A DNA stretch of 63,378 nucleotides, filler included, from Collodictyon triciliatum (lineage: Eukaryota), in assembly GCA_043381765.1 (NCBI GenBank). It is 11 parts of 11 records of this genome, joined end to end, with 100 filler letters (N's around TTAATTAATTAA, not from the genome) between each part and the next. Parts side by side here need not be neighbours in the genome. Positions count along the whole stretch, not along the records: positions 28,875 to 34,545 come from JBHJMP010005029.1; 10 more parts are not named here. One strand, given 5' to 3'. Below, one piece after another: positions 29,407 through 59,978 of this stretch (positions are counted from its first letter, which is position 1; the number at the start of each line of letters is the position of its first letter). The translations under genes and the position numbers were made by a program. The notes under the pieces are model-generated. The model was not told where the DNA came from. It saw only the letters and a list, made by a program, of their open reading frames with translations, and searched no databases.

Positions 29407-31885
29407 TTATTCAACCTTGCCAAACATTTGAATTCTTTCATTGCCCCAGTCACAAATATAGAGTTTCTGGTTCAGTCCAAAGCATGCTCCCTTTTGGCCA
29501 TTAAACTGTCCATCGGTTGAAGACTTCGACGAATTTCCGAACGTGTGAACATCAGCATTGTCTTTTGTCGAGTCGTAAACGCGGATGTGATGATTTCCAC
29601 GATCGCTTACCAGAATTGTGTTGTTTGGACCCTCTACGATGAAAACATGACCCGGCACTTTATTGATTATAACGGTGCGTAGAAATGCTCCCATTACATC
29701 ATAAATGTTAATTTTGTCTCCGCCATATCCAATCACGCACACTTCGTTTTTTGAAGTTACGCAAATCCCCTCTGGATTTACGATTCTATATCACCAAAAG
29801 ATGACTCTGCAAACGAGCGTTCGTACTCAAACACCCGGTTGAACTTCTCCACTTGATGCTTGCCTTTATTTGCCACGTAAAGATTCCCGTCGTGGTCAAA
29901 ATACATATTAAACGGATCAGTGAATCCACCAAAGTCGTTCATAGATGAGCTTCGTGTGCTCCTTTTGCGATCCGATTGGATTGTCTGAATCACATTGAAG
30001 TTATCATCAAAAATTTGCACACGATTTTCGTAATCACTAACAGCAATATGTCCATCAAGTGAAATGGCGATTCCGATTGGTGAGTTGAATTGACCGGGGC
30101 CTGAACCTTTACTGCCGAATGTGCAAATAAATCTCAAATCCTCATTCAACACTTGTACGCGATGATTGTCGTTTTCGACGACAAATATGTGCTTTGTCTT
30201 TGGATGAGCTGCAATTCCCCATGGATATTTAAACTGAAGAGCTCCACCTCCTTGTGACCCGGCCTTCCTCTGAAAAACGTAGTCTTTGATATTGCACTCC
30301 CATGGTTTCTGGTAAAAGTCCACACCCACCTTCTTCTTTTGCTCCTCCTGTGCTATTTTCTTCTTCTCTTCAGCCTTTTCCATCTGCTCCTTCTCCAAGC
30401 GATACATCTGCACTTCGCCTTCCAACTCTCTCATTTGCTCCTCTCTCTCATCCATGCGTCTCTGCCACTCCACGTTTTGCATTCGCATCTTTTCCAATTC
30501 CAACTCACAATTTGCGTGCATTTCCTTCACCTTGTATGCTTCAATTTCTCTGATCACTAATTCACCTTCAATCCCAATACTCGTTGTTAATTCTTGCATA
30601 AACGCAATCCCCAACTCTTCCATCTTCATCTCTGTCTGAACGGCTATCCGTGCAAAAACTGCGCTCTTGAAAAGCTTGGTCACTATGCCATCACTCTCAT
30701 AAACTTCTTTGGACTCTTTCAGCATTGAAATTGAGTGCTTCAGAATATTCTCGGAGACCTCAATTCGATATTTTGAATATTCGACGATATCTCTTGACGG
30801 CTGGAACGTCGCCTTCACCTACATACATGTATGACTAAATGAGCTTATTGACCATGGTAAAGTCATTTCCTTTATTGGATCGAAAATTAGTATGATTTTT
30901 CTTTTACTAAGGAATAGACAACGTGCGAATATAAATGAGGATACTGTGGCTGTGAGTTTCTGTCTCAGTTGTGCTGCCTTATGGGTAATATTCTCGTACA
31001 GGGTATCAATTTTTGTGAGCTGCTCCTGCTCCGTCTCATTAATCTATAATTCATATCGTCTTAACTGAGTCATAGTTGATAACACCATTCAACAAAAGGA
31101 GGAAAGACAGGTATCTTCACAAAAGAACCTACCTTTTTCATCTCAATTTCGGCTCTCTTCTTCATTTCACCTATCTCGAGGATTTTCTTTTCTGCTCCCG
31201 CAATGAGCTCGCCTTCTTTGATTGAGTTGTAATCGATTTTCTCAACTTTGACATATTCATGAGATTTAGATGAAATGGAATCTTCAAAGCCACATGTAGA
31301 ACACATTTCAGTGACCGGCCAGCATTCCTTGCAGACTGAAATTATGGGGAGCTTATGCAAAATACATTCACGCATGCTCGCCCTGTGCTTGATTCCAGGG
31401 TCATCCAATGTGCTATTTATCAAAATATAACAATAATTTTATTTTTCATAATAATCATAAGAAAAAGAAATGAAAAAGAAGACAAAAGCATTTTATAAAA
31501 TCAGGATATATACGTACCTGACTTTGTGTCTCATCGTTCTCTTTTGCTTGGAGTGATGCTTTTCATGGCACTCGCTGCAAAGCAGACCACAGCCGTCCTT
31601 ACAGACTAAATTTGGCTCGCTTGAACAGTCTACGCATTCCTCTTTTTTCCTAGGGTCTCTTTGAGCAACTACTTTGTCGTGGTACACTGAGTTTGAGTGT
31701 GGATTATTCGCTGAAGACGCGGTGAAATCGGCATGGCAAACGGGACACGCAGGTTTTGCTCTTGCATGTTGCGCAAGTTTCTCGGTCCTTGAAACACACT
31801 CGCAACAGAAAGTGTGCCCACATGGAAGTTCCACAGTGTCTTGGAAGATTTTGAGGCAGGTGGGACAGTTGCACTCGCTCTCCAT
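29407..31885 (-). CDS. TRIM/RBCC-NHL protein (RING, B-boxes, coiled coil, NHL repeats) with an apparent frameshift near 29778; possible pseudogene
   Basis: RING CPTC...LPCGHTFCCEC...CPVC, Cys/His B-box motifs, a coiled coil, and NHL repeats FKYPWGIA, GQFNSPIGIA, FTDPFNM and GQFNGQKG. The frame changes between SFGDIES* and NPEGICV. Confidence 0.88.
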
Positions 31886-32240
31886 TTTCGGTCTCTGTTC
31901 ACAGCGGTAAGCAAGAGTTTGAAAAGATGGAGTGAGAATGAAGAAGAGTGAGATTGAAGAAAGAGTGAGATTGAAGAAAGAGTGAGATTGAAAAAAGAGT
32001 GAGAACGAAGAGTGAGGATGAGTAAAAAGAGCAAGAAGTGCATTACAGGGTTTAAAGCAGATTGATCTGTTTGCAACATTTTTTTTCTTTGATAAATTCA
32101 AATTTCTTTTTTCATCCAAGGAACCATAATATATCTGGAATGTATATATTGAATGAACCATATTCCTTTTCGTTCGTTTGTCGTGTGTTGGAAACCCATT
32201 GATTCTCGCAAGTAGTCGAGGAGGAATCTACTGGAGGATT

Positions 32241-32304
32241 GAGAGTTTGGGGGAGTTTTTTTTTTCTTCCTTTATTCGATTCAAAAAGAGAGTTTGGGGG
32301 AGTT
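32241..32304 (-). mobile_element. 30-nt micro-insertion of the same family with a perfect 17-bp target-site duplication
   Basis: GAGAGTTTGGGGGAGTT at 32241-32257 and 32288-32304 flanks TTTTTTTTCTTCCTTTATTCGATTCAAAAA. Confidence 0.75.
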
Positions 32305-32329
32305 CTTCGTTGAGGGTGTTGCTTTCTCA

Positions 32330-34112
32330 CCTAAACAAAAACCCAAAGAGTAAACAACTTGAAACTCCTTGATAGTGAGATACAAAATCTGCAAGAAACC
32401 ATCAGCACCCTCACTCCTACTTTTCATCCTGATTATGGACCCTATCACGAGAAAACCAGAACTCAGCGAGGTTCCGCAAATAAGCATCAACAACGAGCAA
32501 CAAGAAAAGAAACTAACCCGACTGCTATTTGGGGATGAAATCAAGCCATATGCAACCGCCAAAAGCAAATAGAGGCACTGCTAGAAATAACAGTCAGCAA
32601 ACTAAAGAAAGTAGGGCTTATAATAAGTAAAGATAAATCAGCGACTAACAACCAGACCGACTCCTCCCACGCCCAAGAAATTGGACAAGACGGGACATAC
32701 AGATACCTAGAAGTCTACGAAGACCAAGGAAACCAAATAGCAAAAACGACAAAGACAGAGACTCGAGAAGAGATGTAGAAACGAATCAAAAAACTATGTG
32801 CAACAAACCTAAATGCCAAACACACCTCCCAAGCAATCAATTAGTTTGCCCTACTAGTATGAAACTATCATATAAGCCTTTTCGACTATAGCACAGACGA
32901 ATTCAGGGAGATGGGTTCAAAAGTAAAAAAAAAAAAAAAAACGAATTGTCTTAAAAAGAAAAAAAAAAAAAAAAAACTTCCTTAGCAGCGAAAAAGTCCT
33001 TTAAAGCTGCAAGCATACAAAGATTCTACTTACCCAGAAATGAATATGAAAGAGGACTAGTCAGCACTGAACACAAGGCAGAAAGACTGCTCATAAACTT
33101 CTACAGCAACCCAAGTGACATCTCGACGAACCACAGGAAAAACAGTTATCCTCATGATGGAGAGAAAAGAAACAACTCCAGTCACCCAAATTGAGGATAT
33201 ACTAGCAGCTTAATACCTTGAGATTGACCATGACAATTTTAGAACACGGATCTACAAAACACTTAAGTTCAGCACCTAAAAGGAAGCAACAGTAAGAAAA
33301 CACTTCACATCCCATTCTACAAATCTATAGAAGAGAACATAAAAAAAGACTCCGACAAATGACTAACGAAAGGAATTAGTTACCGAGAGAATAAGCTACA
33401 TGCTTTACTATGCAAGATGGCGATGTATTCTTTAACGTAACAAAATGCAACACTTGTAAGATACCAAGGAACCTTCCCCATGTAGCGGGGGCATGCACTC
33501 TTAACCTACAAAAAACTTCACCAGACGCCATAACAAAGTAGTCCGATGCATTCACAAACACCTAACCCCCCAAATACAACTCCCGAAAAACAAGAGGCTC
33601 AAAAGACACAGAATAGAAAAAGTAATAGCAAACCAATACGCCACGATACACTCTGACTGTAACTTGGACCCAAAGTCCAGAAAACGTCTATAGGATCTGA
33701 CTTAGTAGTCCATGATAAGATTCACAAAATTGTGCACATAATCGATGTAGCGGCAGTAATGCCAGGGAACCAGGCCAAAAAAAAATGGACAAGAGAAAGT
33801 GGGTGAGTATAAGACTCTAAGGAGATACCTAGCCAAGAAACATCATGCAAGGATAGTGGTACTGCCTTACGTCATCTCCTAGGACGGTAATGTCACCAAG
33901 AAACCCCCGATACCAGGAGCATTCTAGGTAAAACGGACAAAGTACATGCATGTATTCAAAAAGTGATGACGAGAGAAACTATGGATATAGTATTCAGAAC
34001 ATTCAGCAACAAAAATGACTGGAAAAATGAGAGAATAGACAAAGACATAATTGCTAATATGGTACATAAACTTGAAACCAACTCCATCAACGAAGAATTC
34101 CCCAAATCGTAA
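32330..34112 (+). mobile_element. Decayed, 5'-truncated R4-clade (RLE-type) non-LTR retrotransposon
   Basis: RT remnants SLLLFILIMDPITRK, LLFGDEIKPYA (YxDD region), YRYLEVYE, RIKKLCATNLNAKH..QAIN and RFYLPRNEYERGL, then a CxxC..H...C knuckle and restriction-like endonuclease motifs DLVVHDK..IIDV...EK...Y, VLPYVIS. Many stops and frameshifts, no introns. Confidence 0.85.
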
Positions 34113-34487
34113 TCCCTCAAAAGATTCTTTCTGAGAAAAACCTGTTCCGAGCTTCGAAAAAAATCGAGTCATTCTGTGAAGCAATCTCTTCCGCTGTCAC
34201 AGTTAATACAATTGGTTCGCATTCTACCTTTCAAGCATCATCCCCAAATACCATTACAACTCAACAAACTTATCCTTTTTGTGAGAAAACCTTCTTTTTT
34301 TACTACCCCCATGCAAATCAAATTAAAATCACCCATCAATACACAAGACTAATATAACTAAAAAAAATCTTTAAGCAAAAAAAGCATTGCACAAAAAACA
34401 GAAGCTGAAACTAAGCAAGCTCTATATTATTTTTGGAGCTCAAAAAAATCGATCGAAGGTGGGGCAATACATCAAATAATAGCAAAA

Positions 34488-34519
<32 letters not shown>

Positions 34520-34662
34520 TTACACAAAAAAAAAAAAAAGAAAAANNNNNNNNNNNNNNNNNNNNNNNNNNNNNNNNNNNNNNNNNNNNTTAATTAATTA
34601 ANNNNNNNNNNNNNNNNNNNNNNNNNNNNNNNNNNNNNNNNNNNNAAAATGTTTAAAAATTT

Positions 34663-35018: not shown

Positions 35019-38467
<3,449 letters not shown>

Positions 38468-40716: not shown

Positions 40717-45914
<5,198 letters not shown>

Positions 45915-46516: not shown

Positions 46517-46588
46517 TTCCGATACCGGGAATCGAACCCGGGTTGTGTGGGTGAAAGCCACATGTGCTACCGACTACACCATATCGGA
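46517..46588 (-). tRNA. tRNA-Glu (anticodon TTC)
   Basis: 72-nt cloverleaf: acceptor stem TCCGATA/TATCGGA, anticodon arm TGTGG-CTTTCAC-CCACA, T-arm CCGGG-TTCGATT-CCCGG, followed by a T6 Pol III terminator. Confidence 0.97.
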
Positions 46589-51483: not shown

Positions 51484-53021
51484 GTGGTTTGTTCTGAAAC
51501 CATTTTTTTTTTCATTCATATAGCCAAGAGGCAACTCAGAAAGCACCACGAACATGCCTCTCTAATCCTTATTGATGTTGTTGTTGATGTTGATGTTGAT
51601 GTTGATGTTGATGTTGATGTTGATGTTGATGTTGATGTTGATGTTGATGTTGATGTTGATGGTGATATTATTGTTATTGATGTTGTTATTGTTATTGTTA
51701 ATGATGTTGATGTTGGTATTGATGTTGATATTGATATTGATATTGATATTAATGTGAGTGTTATCATTAGCATTTTTTTAACAATATGCTATGAAAAACA
51801 CATTTTTTTTCGTCCTCGAAGCGATGGGCTTTCCAGGATCAGGTTTGGNNNNNNNNNNNNNNNNNNNNNNNNNNNNNNNNNNNNNNNNNNNNTTAATTAA
51901 TTAANNNNNNNNNNNNNNNNNNNNNNNNNNNNNNNNNNNNNNNNNNNNAAAAAGAAAAAAGAAAAAAGAAAAAAGAAAAAAGAAAAAAGAAAAAGGAAAA
52001 AAAAAGAAAAAGAAAAAGAAAAAGAAGAAAAAGAAGAAAAAGAAAAAAGAAGAAAAAGAAAAAAGAAAAAAGAAGAAAAAGAAAAAAGAAAAAAGAAAAA
52101 GAAAAAAGAAAAAAGAAAAAAGAAAAAGAAAAAAGAAAAAGAAAAAAGAAAAAGAAAAAGAAAAAAGAAAATGCAACGATGAACCACAATCATGGCGTAA
52201 TAAAAAAAAAAAGATAGGGTACCCCACAACACACAATAGAATTACAAAAAAAAAAAAAAAAAATGTAGAATGATTGTCGAGAGAGGAAAAAAACATTCTT
52301 TGCCGAATGCTGCCTTCGTGACGGGCTTAATATTCGCGCCTGAACATATACAAAAGAAAAAAAAGTATTATATATAGTGAAAGACGCTAATGAGCGAACG
52401 TTTTTTTTTTCAGACAGGCGCAACCGCCGCAGAACGCGAGACTTCTGTCGTGGTTTTTTTTTCTTTTTTGAAGGGTATTTGATCGTGGTGGTGGAGTAAA
52501 TTGGTTGAATCGATCGACTTCGGGACTGAAAATGTACGAAGATAATTTGAATAGGCAAAAGAAATAAAGAGGAAAATTACTCGCGGTAGTGTCGCAATAA
52601 ATGGATATTTATTCTCCAGATAAGGCTGTAATTTGGTGGGAACATAAGTTTCAGTGAATTGGGACGAATGTGTAGATGCTCGTTTTGTTAGGGAAGGATG
52701 AGGTATGAAGATTTTGACTTAAATAATCACATACACTTTTCCTTTTTGTGTTTTTTCCACCCTCTTATTACTTCTTACTTTATGGGAACTTATTCTGTGT
52801 GTGCGAATCATCATTTATTGAAGTAGCCCAGCAGATGGTCGAAACGGTTTATCAGCCTTGAATTTTTCGAGCGTGACCGCCGAAGTATTGGCTGGCTACA
52901 ATCTTGTGCTTGGCTGTCGCTCACAGACCCATGTTTTTGCAGAACCATGTCGTAAAGCTGGCAAAAAGTTTGTTCGGGTTATGACCATTTGGACTTATGT
53001 CGAAAGATTTTAAAATTAAAG

Positions 53022-56000
53022 TTATTTGAAAAAAATATAAACTTTCGATAACTGGCAGAAATCTCAACAAGTGATTTCACAAAAGAACCCTACAGTTCAC
53101 CTGGATTATCAATTTTTTTTATTGAAGGGTGTACCTTGTCGACTTCCGCTTCGGTTTTTACCATGACCTGGCGGATGCGTCGAACTCTTTCAAGAGACGT
53201 TTTCACATGTTCATTAACCTTAATCACAGATTTTAAGATGGATTTATTTTTTAAGAAAATTAAAATAGAAGAATGTTCATTTTAATCATTTCATAGAAAT
53301 TTAAATACTGTTGGTTTTTTTTTTTGAAAAATACATTTGCGATGCGCTCGATTTCCTTCTCCTTGTGCATCAATCTCTTTCTGAATGATGACCAAGAGAG
53401 TATTTGCCTGACGACCTGTCAATTTTTTTTTTTTTTTAAAAAAAAAGGTATAAATCGCAAATATTTCGTTGAACTTACATAGACCATGAAATGCTGATTC
53501 GGTTCTTGGTTAATGATTTCTGATTTAAACATATCAAAAATAAATAACTGAAAATGTCAAACTTTAGTATGTTCTTGTCGGGAAAGTTGTGGGGTCTTAT
53601 AGGCTCTCCAAACAGATTGAATTACCAAGGCTGCATTTTCAGGCAAATGTTTTGTCGCCTCGCTCTACGGGGTTATTTAAAAATCGAGAAATGAATAAAA
53701 CGATTAAAACAAAAGCATGATATTTGAGATGATTCAAAATGAATGGCAAGTCTGTGCTAAATTAGACCTTTTTTAAAAAGGTTGTTATAAAAGCCTGTGG
53801 GCGTGTCAAAATGAGTGTTCTTTTCACCACACTTATCAAGAGAGCACTATTGATGGCGCCCCACAGCCATCCTGGTCAAGAAATGAAATATACCTCCATT
53901 TAGATTCTTATTCGTTTCACGTCGCGATAAGTTGAAAAAGAAATGATTCAGTTGCAAATATGATTAAGTGGATTATGCATATCAGAAACCTATGAAAACA
54001 AAAGCCCTCGCGCAATATGTCTGGACAGTAACGTCACCATAACCGATGGTTGTAATCGAAACATAAATCATCCATACAGTCTCTGAAAAGTTCTTTTGCG
54101 GGGTAAGGGGATTGTTGTGCTCGCAAAGGCGAACTCCATACGCAGCAAACAAAATGTTGAATAGGATGGACTATAGTTCATAATGAAGCATCATCAGTAA
54201 TTAGGAAAAGAATGGCATATCCTTGTTCAATAATATGATGCACTTACAATAGGTAGGAAGAAGAACGGATACAGGTGAAGCGATGCTTTCAACGCAAATG
54301 ATGATGAAGTTTGTACATTGTTAAGTTTTCCAGAAAGTTCGACAGGCCGTAAATGAAATCCCATACTGAATTTGATTGTTCGATCTAATATTCACAAACA
54401 CAAGAGCTAAGAAAGCGATTTTTCTATTACCAAGTAAATACTAGCATATAAAAAAAGTTTGATGCAATAGGTATATAATCGCTACTGACATAAAAGATAC
54501 GCCCGAAATAGCATAATTGCACCAAGAATGTTATCGATGTTATACCGCACTGACCCAAGAGCACCTGTTATGTAGGGTTGTATCGCTTAACAAATTCAGA
54601 ATACCCATAAATACTCATCAAGCGACAATAGAAAAAATTAACGGAATACATACGCATGTTCAATTCCACATGGTGGTTCACAAAAGGAAGGGGATGTATT
54701 AAAATAATCATAGTCTCCAAAATAGCATCCTGGATATACTTTGATGGTAAACTGGCATCTGTTGAATTTTTAAAATCCATATATCTACGTGAAAAAAATA
54801 CTTGGCATCTCCTCTCCTTTGGTACAAAATAAATATAAAAGTAAAAATAAAAAAAAAACCGAAATCAGTATACCTTCAATCAGCCGCGAACCTCGAAGTC
54901 GAACCACCTCTTGACGAGTTCTGTAGTATGCATAAACGAAGTACACTAGCAGGCATCGAATACAAAAGTAGATAATATAAATTGATTCATACGGATGTTA
55001 TTCATACAATAATAAAATGCGATGAGTATTGTCTGATTTTAATATTACACCTGTGATTAAAGTTGATATTGATATTAAGATTTTGATGATATCTGTCTCG
55101 CTTGTCGGATTGTTACCATTTGAAAACAGGATTTCGTTCTGCAATAGTTTATAGAATTTAAAGTGCAAATGAAATCAATATATCATCATGAAGATATCCT
55201 GATATAATTTCATTCAATACGAATATAATAAAATGCTAGTTAACGAACAAAAAGAACAAATTACGTACTTCAAGAATCATCAAAAGAACCCCACATAAGG
55301 AGAAAAAATTGATCAGCTTCACGAGGACGGCGAGGCGCTCCGTACGAATGTTTGAACCTCTCAGGTTCTCTTCCAAGTTAAAAGTCAAGTCGCTTCAGCA
55401 ATATAATATACGCATAGTATGTTAATTTTATAAAAGTATTAGTGATAACATAATTCAAATGAATACAAGAGCATGTTTCCAGATTGCACCATCAACAGTC
55501 GAATGAAGAAATGCAAAGAGGAGTATTTTTTCATAAATTATTCTGCCGTAGCCAACAAAAAAAAAACCTAATTTCTTTTGTTATTCGACTGATTTCAGAC
55601 GACATTTGCGTCATCGACCCAGACATGAATTGATTCCATCCACCCCTACAAAGGTATATTTATGATTGTCAATCAAACACCAAATGGAAAATGTCATTCA
55701 TTGCCATGTATGGAGTCGCAAAAAGGACGCCCTCGGGTTATACCACTCTCAAAAAAAAATACAGCATCTTGAAAAAAACCAGATTGATTGCATTATTTTT
55801 TTTTATTATGTTCACTAATATTGAAGAAAAGGATGAATGAGAATGTAGAGGAATAGTTCCACAAACCTAAATAGACCCACCATAGTTCGAAAGCTATCCA
55901 TACGTGATGTATTTTCATGTTGATGTATATAAGGTAAAATTTTCTCAGAAGGAAGGGAGACGGGTTGTATATCATCTGGGTTTAGTTTTCAGAACAAGGA

Positions 56001-58165: not shown

Positions 58166-59978
58166 GATTATGATGAAGACGAAGATGCCGATTTTTTGGC
58201 TGCCTTAGAAGCTTCAAAATTCACGAGTGGTATCACCGAGCGGGACACACGGAAGAGAAATGTCTCAGAAGTAACGATGACGTATTCGTCCGATGACGAT
58301 GCCAAAGCGAAGAAAAAGCCGCACAGAGATGTAATTACTCGAAATTTGCCATCACATTTTTCTTTCTCAAGTAGCGGCGCAATTTCATAGCGACATGATA
58401 ATGAATTACTATTATTACTATTATTACTATTATTACTATTATTACTATTATTACTATTATTACTATTATTACTATTATTACTATTATTACTATCATTACT
58501 ATGATGATTATGATTATTATGATTATTATGATTATTATGATTATTACTATTACTATTACTATCATTACTATCATTACTATCATTACTATGATGATTATGA
58601 TTATTAAAACTTTATTTCAGTATTAATTTGAACCGGGCTCATCTCTCGAATTTGTACTTAGATTCCGAAAGAGTCCACCAGAAATGAAAAACCTGCAACA
58701 CACAGAGATGATGACGATGACGATGACGATGGGTGGCTGAGAACTTTGGGAAGGCATCAGAAGGGAAGAAAGGTAGGGAATGGGGGCGAGGATGATGCTG
58801 ATGGTGAATGGATAAATGAAGCTGAAGAAGTTAAAGAAGCTGAAGAAGTTGAGGAAGTCAAACCAGCGAGGCAAGAGAAACCGAAGATTGGACCAAAGGT
58901 GACTCTTTTTTCTTTTATTTCTTTTTTGGCTCGCTTGAATTGAGCGATTTCTTTTTATGTTTGTGTTCTGTGTCCATTTTTTCCTTTCATGATGTTCCCA
59001 AGGGCACACCACATTTAACATACTTTTTTTTCAATATAAAAGCAATATGTTTCGTGGTATAGTTGTCGCAATCATATTTGAATTGTTTCTCAAATAATAT
59101 ACAAATACTTTATGGCATAGGCTCCGACCACAGCCCTGATGGACGAATGTAATCGCAATGATATATATGGGCCAAATGATTAACACGTCCACATTTCTAT
59201 TATTCTCCTTGAAATATGTCCTGGGCCGAAGGGATTTTTCACCCTCAATTGTTTATTCCCACGCAGTGCGCGTTGTCCTTCCAAGTTTCTTCTCCGGATG
59301 CGTCGCTTATTTCCATAGAATCCCCCACGGTGAATTAGGAATGCTAAAGCGCGCTATCTTTGGTTTTGGAGGGTTTGTTTCTTGACATAATGTTCCAAGA
59401 CCATCAAGTGGGTGGCGCATGTTTTGTACTGCTTTATATAAGCAACTATGTTATTGCCCCAACCTTCTTATGAATGCTAATAGAGAAATAGCTGACTCTC
59501 TCACTCGTGCTGTGACCCACATCATCACACAGCGGAATTGGGAGGAAAGCTACGAGACCGCAACTCTGGAAAACCCTGGTATGTTCTGTAAACTTGCGTT
59601 ATGATTGCGAGCAGAACCAAAAATCGCCTTTCATGTCAAGACTCTTCCTGCTTTGGTGAAAAAAAGACCAGATGCTTTCCCCTATCTATCGCGTTTGTAT
59701 GTGTGTATTGTTTGTGTATGTATGTATGTATGTATGTATGTATGTATGTATGTATGTATGTATGTATGTATGTATGTATGTATGTATGTATGTATGTATG
59801 TATGTATGTATGTATGTATGTATGTGTTGGAATAAAATGCGGTGACGAAAACTGAAAGCATCAAACACACACAGACTTAAAAGTTGTACGCCCTTCGTGG
59901 ATTGTCGACTGTGTCAAGGAAAAGAAGCTCAAATCCGTGATGCCGCACGCAGTGACGCCATTAAATAGACTCCTCTGA
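58166..59978 (+). CDS. XRCC1: XRCC1-like DNA repair protein: acidic linker plus C-terminal BRCT domain (5'-truncated)
   Basis: VLPSFFSG...LKRAIFGFGGEIADSLTRAVTHIITQRNWEESYETATLENPDLKVVRPSWIVDC resembles XRCC1 BRCT2. A ligase-III-type BRCT is the alternative. Confidence 0.7.
59717..59824 (+). repeat. (TATG)n microsatellite, intronic
   Basis: Seen directly. Confidence 0.95.

Follow-up and report, generated by a model that had tools for sequence, protein, structure and literature searches.

Very short A-tailed insertions between long direct repeats in Collodictyon triciliatum: candidate products of target-primed reverse transcription

Genes and sequence background

The DNA analysed here, referred to below as the window, is a 63,378-base stretch from the genome of Collodictyon triciliatum (assembly GCA_043381765.1). 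It should be noted that the window is not a single locus: it consists of 11 separate scaffolds of 5,664-5,677 bp each, joined through N44-TTAATTAATTAA-N44 spacers, and all results on the element described in this study rest on ~62 kb of genome. The sequence is AT-rich (GC content of ~32-40% per 3-kb bin), with a higher GC content in the last scaffold. Internal runs of N were found at 12962-13584 (623 N) and 21284-21296 (13 N), inside scaffolds 3 and 4, and the assembly is therefore a gapped draft.

Genes across the window are intron-split and animal-like, and include isoleucyl-tRNA synthetase exons, Tctex-1, a dynamin GED domain, Myb, PH domains and a protein kinase. On scaffold 6, a RING plus NHL-repeat (TRIM-like) gene occupies positions 29410-32227 of the minus strand (RING finger, Pfam E=3e-7; NHL repeats, E=2e-15), and it also has a B-box-like cysteine pattern, recognized by eye, and a coiled-coil-like stretch. 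When the NHL ORF was searched for homologues, all matches had an identity of at most 51% and covered partial stretches of the query, and a close relative was not found among them. A tRNA-Glu (TTC) gene at 46517-46588 (minus strand) was the sole Rfam/ARAGORN match above threshold in the window.

Several tandem arrays were also observed. A 17-nt repeat, (GAGTGAGATTGAAGAAA)n, is located at 31930-32020, just 5' of the RING/NHL start codon. Perfect arrays of 8-nt units were found at 18222-18323, (CCCATAAA)n, and at 17329-17428, (ATAATCAA)n, the latter at a scaffold end. Other arrays include (TGTTGA)n at 51582-51661, ATTACTATT and related units at 58405-58606, and a minus-strand (GTCTTTT)n array that extends from about 20980, where the region viewed begins, to 21016.

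Traces of a retroelement were detected on scaffold 6 as well. A degenerate, stop-riddled, retroelement-like region spans 32335-34198 on the plus strand and contains a weak RVT_1 match at 32539-32775 (E=0.033, below the Pfam cut-off). Downstream of this match lie a CCHC-like motif and a PD...D-like motif, a combination that we take to be typical of restriction-like-endonuclease (R2-type) LINEs. This is the only reverse-transcriptase-like fragment, and the region downstream of it differs from the element described below. Its presence on the same scaffold as the first copy of the element implies, therefore, that retroelements may exist in this genome. In addition, a long A-rich tract is present at the scaffold end (34490-34545).

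An insertion upstream of the RING/NHL gene

The first copy of the element (copy 1) is on the minus strand of scaffold 6. It comprises a 30-nt insert at 32258-32287, TTTTTGAATCGAATAAAGGAAGAAAAAAAA, which reads T5, GAATCGAATAAAGGAAG and A8 and includes the exact core shared with other copies. The insert is flanked by a perfect 17-bp direct repeat, AACTCCCCCAAACTCTC, whose upstream unit is at 32288-32304 and whose downstream unit is at 32241-32257. An earlier note on this DNA had reported such a repeat around a 30-nt insert on the minus strand, and both its sequence and its coordinates were reproduced. Copy 1 is located 356 nt upstream of the ATG of the RING/NHL gene (31885), in the same orientation as that gene, and adjoins the weak plus-strand reverse-transcriptase-like fragment.

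The same scaffold also carries a diverged paralogue of the copy-1 target (34074-34128, plus strand), in which the insert is absent and the duplicated bases are single. The surroundings of copy 1 (minus strand, 32326 to about 32230) matched this paralogue at 28 of 33 positions (BLAST E=7e-4). After removal of the insert and one 17-bp repeat, the alignment crossed the junction and reached 56 columns with a score of 48, compared with 41 when the insert was kept; 300 shuffles gave a mean score of 19.9 (sd 2.5) and a maximum of 32. These regions were compared by local alignment, the local match having been missed by global MAFFT alignment. The paralogue resembles an unoccupied target and, being diverged and not an allele, appears to add modest, independent support for an insertion. 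We also considered twin priming for the inverted similarity between 32294-32326 and 34074-34106. In the twin-priming model, the inverted piece derives from upstream of the direct piece; the model was rejected because the inverted piece observed here duplicates the 3' part of the direct piece.

Distribution of the element in the window

The 20-nt core occurs exactly three times in the window, at 27247 (plus strand), 32267 (minus strand) and 44454 (plus strand), on scaffolds 5, 6 and 8, which bears out the earlier report of exact cores on two further, unlinked scaffolds. The core was also identified, with three mismatches, at two additional positions, 18636 (plus strand) and 30867 (minus strand). 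Five matches in total compare with 0.03 expected, and none of 100 shuffles contained five or more. All-against-all BLAST of the 11 scaffolds revealed the element as the only convincing inter-scaffold repeat (E-values of 4e-6 to 5e-5), the remaining matches being of low complexity with E-values of at least 0.002.

Copy 2 (27234-27286, plus strand) consists of a 23-nt insert, TTGAATCGAATAAAGGAAAAAAA, between two units of a 15-bp target-site duplication, ATAAAGAATGTTCTT (27234-27248 and 27272-27286). This perfect 15-bp duplication is new beyond the first observation. The copy is located between PH-domain exons (27576-27734 and 27010-27159; E-values of 1e-5 to 2.5e-6) of a minus-strand gene and is therefore intronic and antisense. 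Copy 3 (44441-44484, plus strand) has the exact core, with a preceding T-run of up to 13 and then AAAATAAAAG. It lies in T/C-rich DNA, and its flank repeat is imperfect, with 13 of 15 positions matching (44430-44444 vs 44485-44499). Thus, the target-site duplications of 15-17 bp that had been claimed for the element are present and perfect at two of the three exact copies (17 and 15 bp), but not at the copy at 44454.

Two variant copies form a pair. One, T6-GAATCGAGCTAAGGG-A7, is located at 17756-17786 on the minus strand and has no clear duplication; the other, T6-AAATCTAAAGGG-A7, is located at 17828-17855 on the plus strand, head-to-head with the first and 41 nt away from it. Together they make up an inverted repeat of ~100 bp (17756-17855) with arms of 14 nt (100% complementary) and 12 nt (92%); the two units have 3 bases beyond the A-run in common. 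No flanking duplication was found around the pair, which might have arisen by duplication in inverted orientation or might represent a structure resembling a MITE.

Three older copies lack an A-tail. The longer copy at 18623-18662 (plus strand; AAAATCATATTA followed by TTTTCGAATCAAATGAAGGAAAT) is in sense orientation, with a plus-strand ORF on either side, of which the one upstream is Myb-like, and appears to be surrounded by an intron (GT at ~18587 and AG at ~18749, splice sites assigned by eye). A second longer copy, AAAATCATACTAA followed by TTTTCGATCCAATAAAGGAAAT, is located at 30860-30899 (minus strand) inside the RING/NHL gene, between its ORF blocks and again in sense orientation. The third, at 24313-24352 (plus strand), contains ACATCGAATAAAGGGAATGA and has a 9-nt flank repeat, ATGATTACA, which may be due to chance. 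A borderline copy, TTGAACCGAATAAAGGGGAAAAA, was detected at 21040-21062 on the minus strand (E=0.067) with a profile that was built from seven of the copies and for which the E-values of those seven hold by construction. In total, the ~62 kb contain three exact and five to six diverged copies, and 6-7 of the 8-9 copies are solitary. The copies differ in age, that is, the family has aged in place. No N-runs were found adjoining the copies.

Flanking duplications compared with chance

Exact direct repeats of at least 11 nt, spaced 8-120 nt apart, were sought throughout the window. Nearly all of the 72 entries obtained were in microsatellite arrays. Outside the arrays, repeats of at least 13 nt were limited to the copy-1 17-mer, the copy-2 15-mer and a 13-mer at 19456, where the coding sequence is itself repetitive. 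A second scan started from each A-run of at least seven in the window, and a copy of the bases that follow it was sought up to 6 kb upstream. It yielded nine entries: two were tiny inserts with repeats of 15 and 17 nt, and the other seven were 10-mers separated by 362-5181 nt. When flank repeats were sought at random positions of the window, at least 15 nt were found at 32 of 3000 positions, which probably lie in the microsatellite arrays.

Sequences from elsewhere served as a further control. An exact 18-mer scan retrieved 48 metagenome and 2 viral loci, all in unrelated and mostly prokaryote-like contexts; one locus (L013) has A10 after the core, without a T-run or a duplication, and at another (L020) the core is located just before an ORF start. 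These 50 loci were considered as possible relatives, but were treated as chance occurrences and used as negative controls. The longest repeat in their flanks was 8 nt.

Several other A-rich sequences in the window were also inspected. Poly(A) look-alikes at 5420-5484, 37897-37945 and 54828-54858 were dropped, as they have no duplications. Two A-tracts are conspicuous: one at 44130-44236, ~200 nt upstream of copy 3, reads about A58, GAGG, T7 and about A37, and the other, at 5438-5482, has about A45 after AATAAATATAACAATTAC. The A-run scan found no flanking duplication of at least 12 nt around either of them; homopolymer expansion or the ageing of retroposed tails may account for them.

Ends, orientation and length classes

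In both young copies, the A-run abuts the downstream duplication (A8-10 in copy 1 and A7-8 in copy 2), and each unit of the variant pair has A7. The T-run at the opposite end is shorter than the A-run, with 5 residues in copy 1 and 2-4 in copy 2. AATAAA is located just before the A-run, which starts ~4 nt after it. The sense strand is probably the one that reads T-run, GAATCG...AAGGAA and A-run, because this strand carries AATAAA and its terminal A-run is the longer homopolymer in both young copies. Animal cleavage sites are usually farther than ~4 nt from AATAAA, and it is possible that the motif does not serve as the signal here.

Two classes of copies can be distinguished. Five A-tailed copies start at the T-run (T5, T2-4, up to T13, T6 and T6), and their upstream sequences are unrelated; three older copies without an A-tail extend further upstream. 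Between the copies at 18636 and 30867 the alignment spans 36 columns and takes in 12 bases upstream, AAAATCATAYTA, with a score of 43 compared with a maximum of 27 in 300 shuffles, and those at 30867 and 24330 align over 63 columns with a score of 23 compared with a maximum of 17 in 100 shuffles. The uniform boundaries described in the earlier note therefore apply to the five A-tailed copies, but not to the three older ones, which share ~12 or more nt upstream of the T-run. These shared bases suggest a longer source sequence, of which the young copies may represent the last ~20 nt.

On the other hand, the common start at the T-run in the A-tailed class suggests a defined end. Four origins of this end appear possible. 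First, reverse transcription might meet a strong stop, or release its template, at a U-run. Second, the A-run of the cDNA might be captured by T-rich target ends through microhomology, which is compatible with copies 2 and 3 and incompatible with copy 1. Third, the RNA might be very short and its cDNA might receive untemplated A's. Finally, the end might be that of a dedicated small RNA. As read from two target sites (n=2), too few for a consensus, the first-strand nick would be on the bottom strand, behind ...GTT at one site and ...TAT at the other. The classical L1 target site is TTTT/AA, and the two sites do not look like it.

Origin of the insertions

Taken together, our analysis leans towards the truncated tail of a longer element. 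We give a probability of roughly one half to the reading that the insertions arose by target-primed reverse transcription (TPRT) of a longer, poly(A)-tailed transcript, of which only the tail and the last ~20 nt were copied, up to a U-run. The signature of TPRT by a poly(A)-type LINE is made up of long duplications of unequal length, an A-run directly next to the downstream one and AATAAA shortly before that run. The earlier note had proposed this signature, and all of its parts are found here, with duplications of 15 and 17 bp. Since the duplications are unequal, insertion by TPRT is favoured over insertion by a transposase, and the interpretation of the copies as TPRT products, which would involve an RNA intermediate, appears to be well supported on the basis of sequence.

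According to this model, an endonuclease would nick the target, and the freed 3' end would prime on the A-tail of the transcript. Only the last ~16-20 nt (GAAUCGAAUAAAGGAA) would then be copied, with synthesis stopping at or just past the U-run, and the flanking duplication would be generated when a second nick was made at a distance of 15-17 bp and the gap filled in. The source would be a longer transcript, from a LINE or its non-autonomous partner, that contributed its 3' end, and the parent would be expected to end in ...T(n)GAATCGAATAAAGGAA(A)n. The copies themselves would be dead on arrival (that is, non-functional) and not self-propagating.

Several observations stand against the truncated-tail reading. 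No parent was found in the 62 kb, either as a longer young copy or as a LINE or SINE with such a 3' end. The start of five copies at the T-run is unexpected under random 5' truncation. Moreover, the three longer copies, which have neither an A-tail nor clear duplications, could be a different and older thing, and simple TPRT does not account for the two variant units facing each other at 17756-17855. The short spacing between AATAAA and the A-run also weighs against this reading, as may the unlikeness of the two target sites (n=2) to that of L1.

The second explanation is an ultra-short, non-autonomous retroposon, in which an RNA of ~20 nt (U-run, GAAUCGAAUAAAGGAA and A-tail) would be produced from one or a few master loci and mobilized in trans by a LINE. 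The A-tail would be either part of the RNA or formed by untemplated A's on the cDNA, and the LINE would recognize the A-tail or the 3' sequence. Such a unit would fit the start of all five A-tailed copies at the T-run without shared upstream sequence, the identical cores of the two youngest copies, and the T-run length of 2-13, as from untemplated addition or slippage; the element is also the only repeat common to the 11 scaffolds, and a longer copy was not seen in the sample. However, 20 nt is too small for any known SINE promoter module. The Rfam search around the element gave nothing better than E=0.24, and neither a tRNA, 7SL or 5S match nor any other Rfam match was obtained; in addition, the folds of the element were no better than those of shuffles, with no stable fold (z-scores of 0.30, 0.51, -0.66 and 0.77). 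The extra upstream sequence shared by the three older copies suggests a longer source, and a 62-kb sample is too small to exclude longer copies. We therefore consider this explanation rather unlikely. Its strongest form, a self-standing nano-retroposon family whose mobile unit is the ~20-nt RNA with its A-tail and which has been amplified to high copy number by a LINE enzyme for which the short 3' tag would suffice, is likewise doubtful. Thus, the self-standing micro-retroposon put forward in the earlier note was not established, given that the upstream bases shared by the three older copies hint at a longer source. These extra bases favour, instead, the alternative raised in the same note, namely the 3' end of a longer element that was cut at the T-run.

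A third explanation places the element at the DNA level: the unit would be the terminal inverted repeat of a MITE-like transposon, and solitary units would result from abortive transposition or internal deletion. The two variant units that face each other 41 nt apart, their arms being complementary at 100% over 14 nt and at 92% over 12 nt, and the 3 bases that the pair shares beyond the A-run would agree with such a structure, as would the fact that the unit has a T-run start and an A-run end on either strand. However, the duplications of 15 and 17 bp are both long and unequal, whereas known eukaryotic DNA transposon superfamilies generate duplications of fixed length (2-11 bp). Furthermore, inverted symmetry within the unit is limited to the homopolymers at its ends, the inverted pair is without a flanking duplication, and solitary units are the rule (6-7 of 8-9 copies). 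A DNA-level origin thus appears improbable.

Finally, an artefact of assembly or gap filling is very improbable, as is an AT-rich motif that arose by chance or convergence (for example, a signal for regulation or polyadenylation). The draft is indeed fragmented and gapped, with small scaffolds, and the unit has a high AT content and homopolymers at both ends. However, five matches were found against 0.03 expected, no N-runs lie beside the copies, the duplication lengths differ and hence do not reflect a fixed k-mer overlap, mutated copies exist that would not be expected of an artefact, and the combination of T-run, A-run and duplication was seen at none of the 50 loci from other sources in which the core occurs by chance.

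Implications and comparison with known systems

The truncated-tail reading and the ultra-short unit would have different consequences. If the insertions are the truncated tails of a LINE, they would mark a recently active retrotransposon whose dominant output is micro-insertions that ordinary repeat finders miss. If, on the other hand, the ~20-nt unit is all that was ever mobilized, this would be the shortest retroposon family known and would reveal that a very small RNA is enough for a LINE reverse transcriptase to recognize and integrate a template; a self-standing nano-retroposon, if true, would define a minimal in vivo substrate for retroposition. The insertions also put AATAAA motifs near or inside genes, one being intronic and one 356 nt upstream of a start codon. 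As the only interspersed repeat in the sample, the element may prove useful in this genome as a marker of young insertions. The core strings (a 14-mer and a 13-mer, both strands) had no match in the open literature, repeat databases and subscription journals being outside the scope of this search, and the family may well have been catalogued already.

Among known systems, MITEs resemble the element at one locus only, the inverted units at 17756-17855 with an overall length of ~100 bp. The element differs from MITEs and other DNA transposons in that its duplications are long and unequal, solitary units predominate and inverted symmetry is absent beyond the homopolymers.

The likeness to SINEs is broader. 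Platy-1 of New World monkeys, a family of ~100 bp, is called the shortest known SINE in primates (PMC4864456). The element is similar to SINEs such as Platy-1 in being short, non-coding and dispersed and in having an A-rich tail and target-site duplications, although Platy-1 exceeds its length of ~20 nt by a factor of four to five. The element presumably shares with SINEs a dependence on LINE enzymes. However, a SINE head, that is, a polymerase III promoter derived from tRNA, 7SL or 5S, was found on none of the copies, the unique part of which is 16-20 nt.

The insertions produced by poly(A)-type LINEs with an AP endonuclease (L1-like, Tad-like and I-like), when truncated at the 5' end, are similar to the element in their variable target-site duplications of 15-17 bp, in the 3' A-run that abuts the duplication, in the AATAAA near the end and in the presence of dispersed copies of different ages. 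The duplication sizes of the L1-like, Tad-like and I-like clades match the range of 15-17 bp. In contrast with ordinary truncated LINE insertions, however, only ~20 nt of the element is unique, and five copies share one 5' boundary at the T-run. The uniform size of ~20 nt, together with an apparent density of three exact and five to six diverged copies in 62 kb, is unusual.
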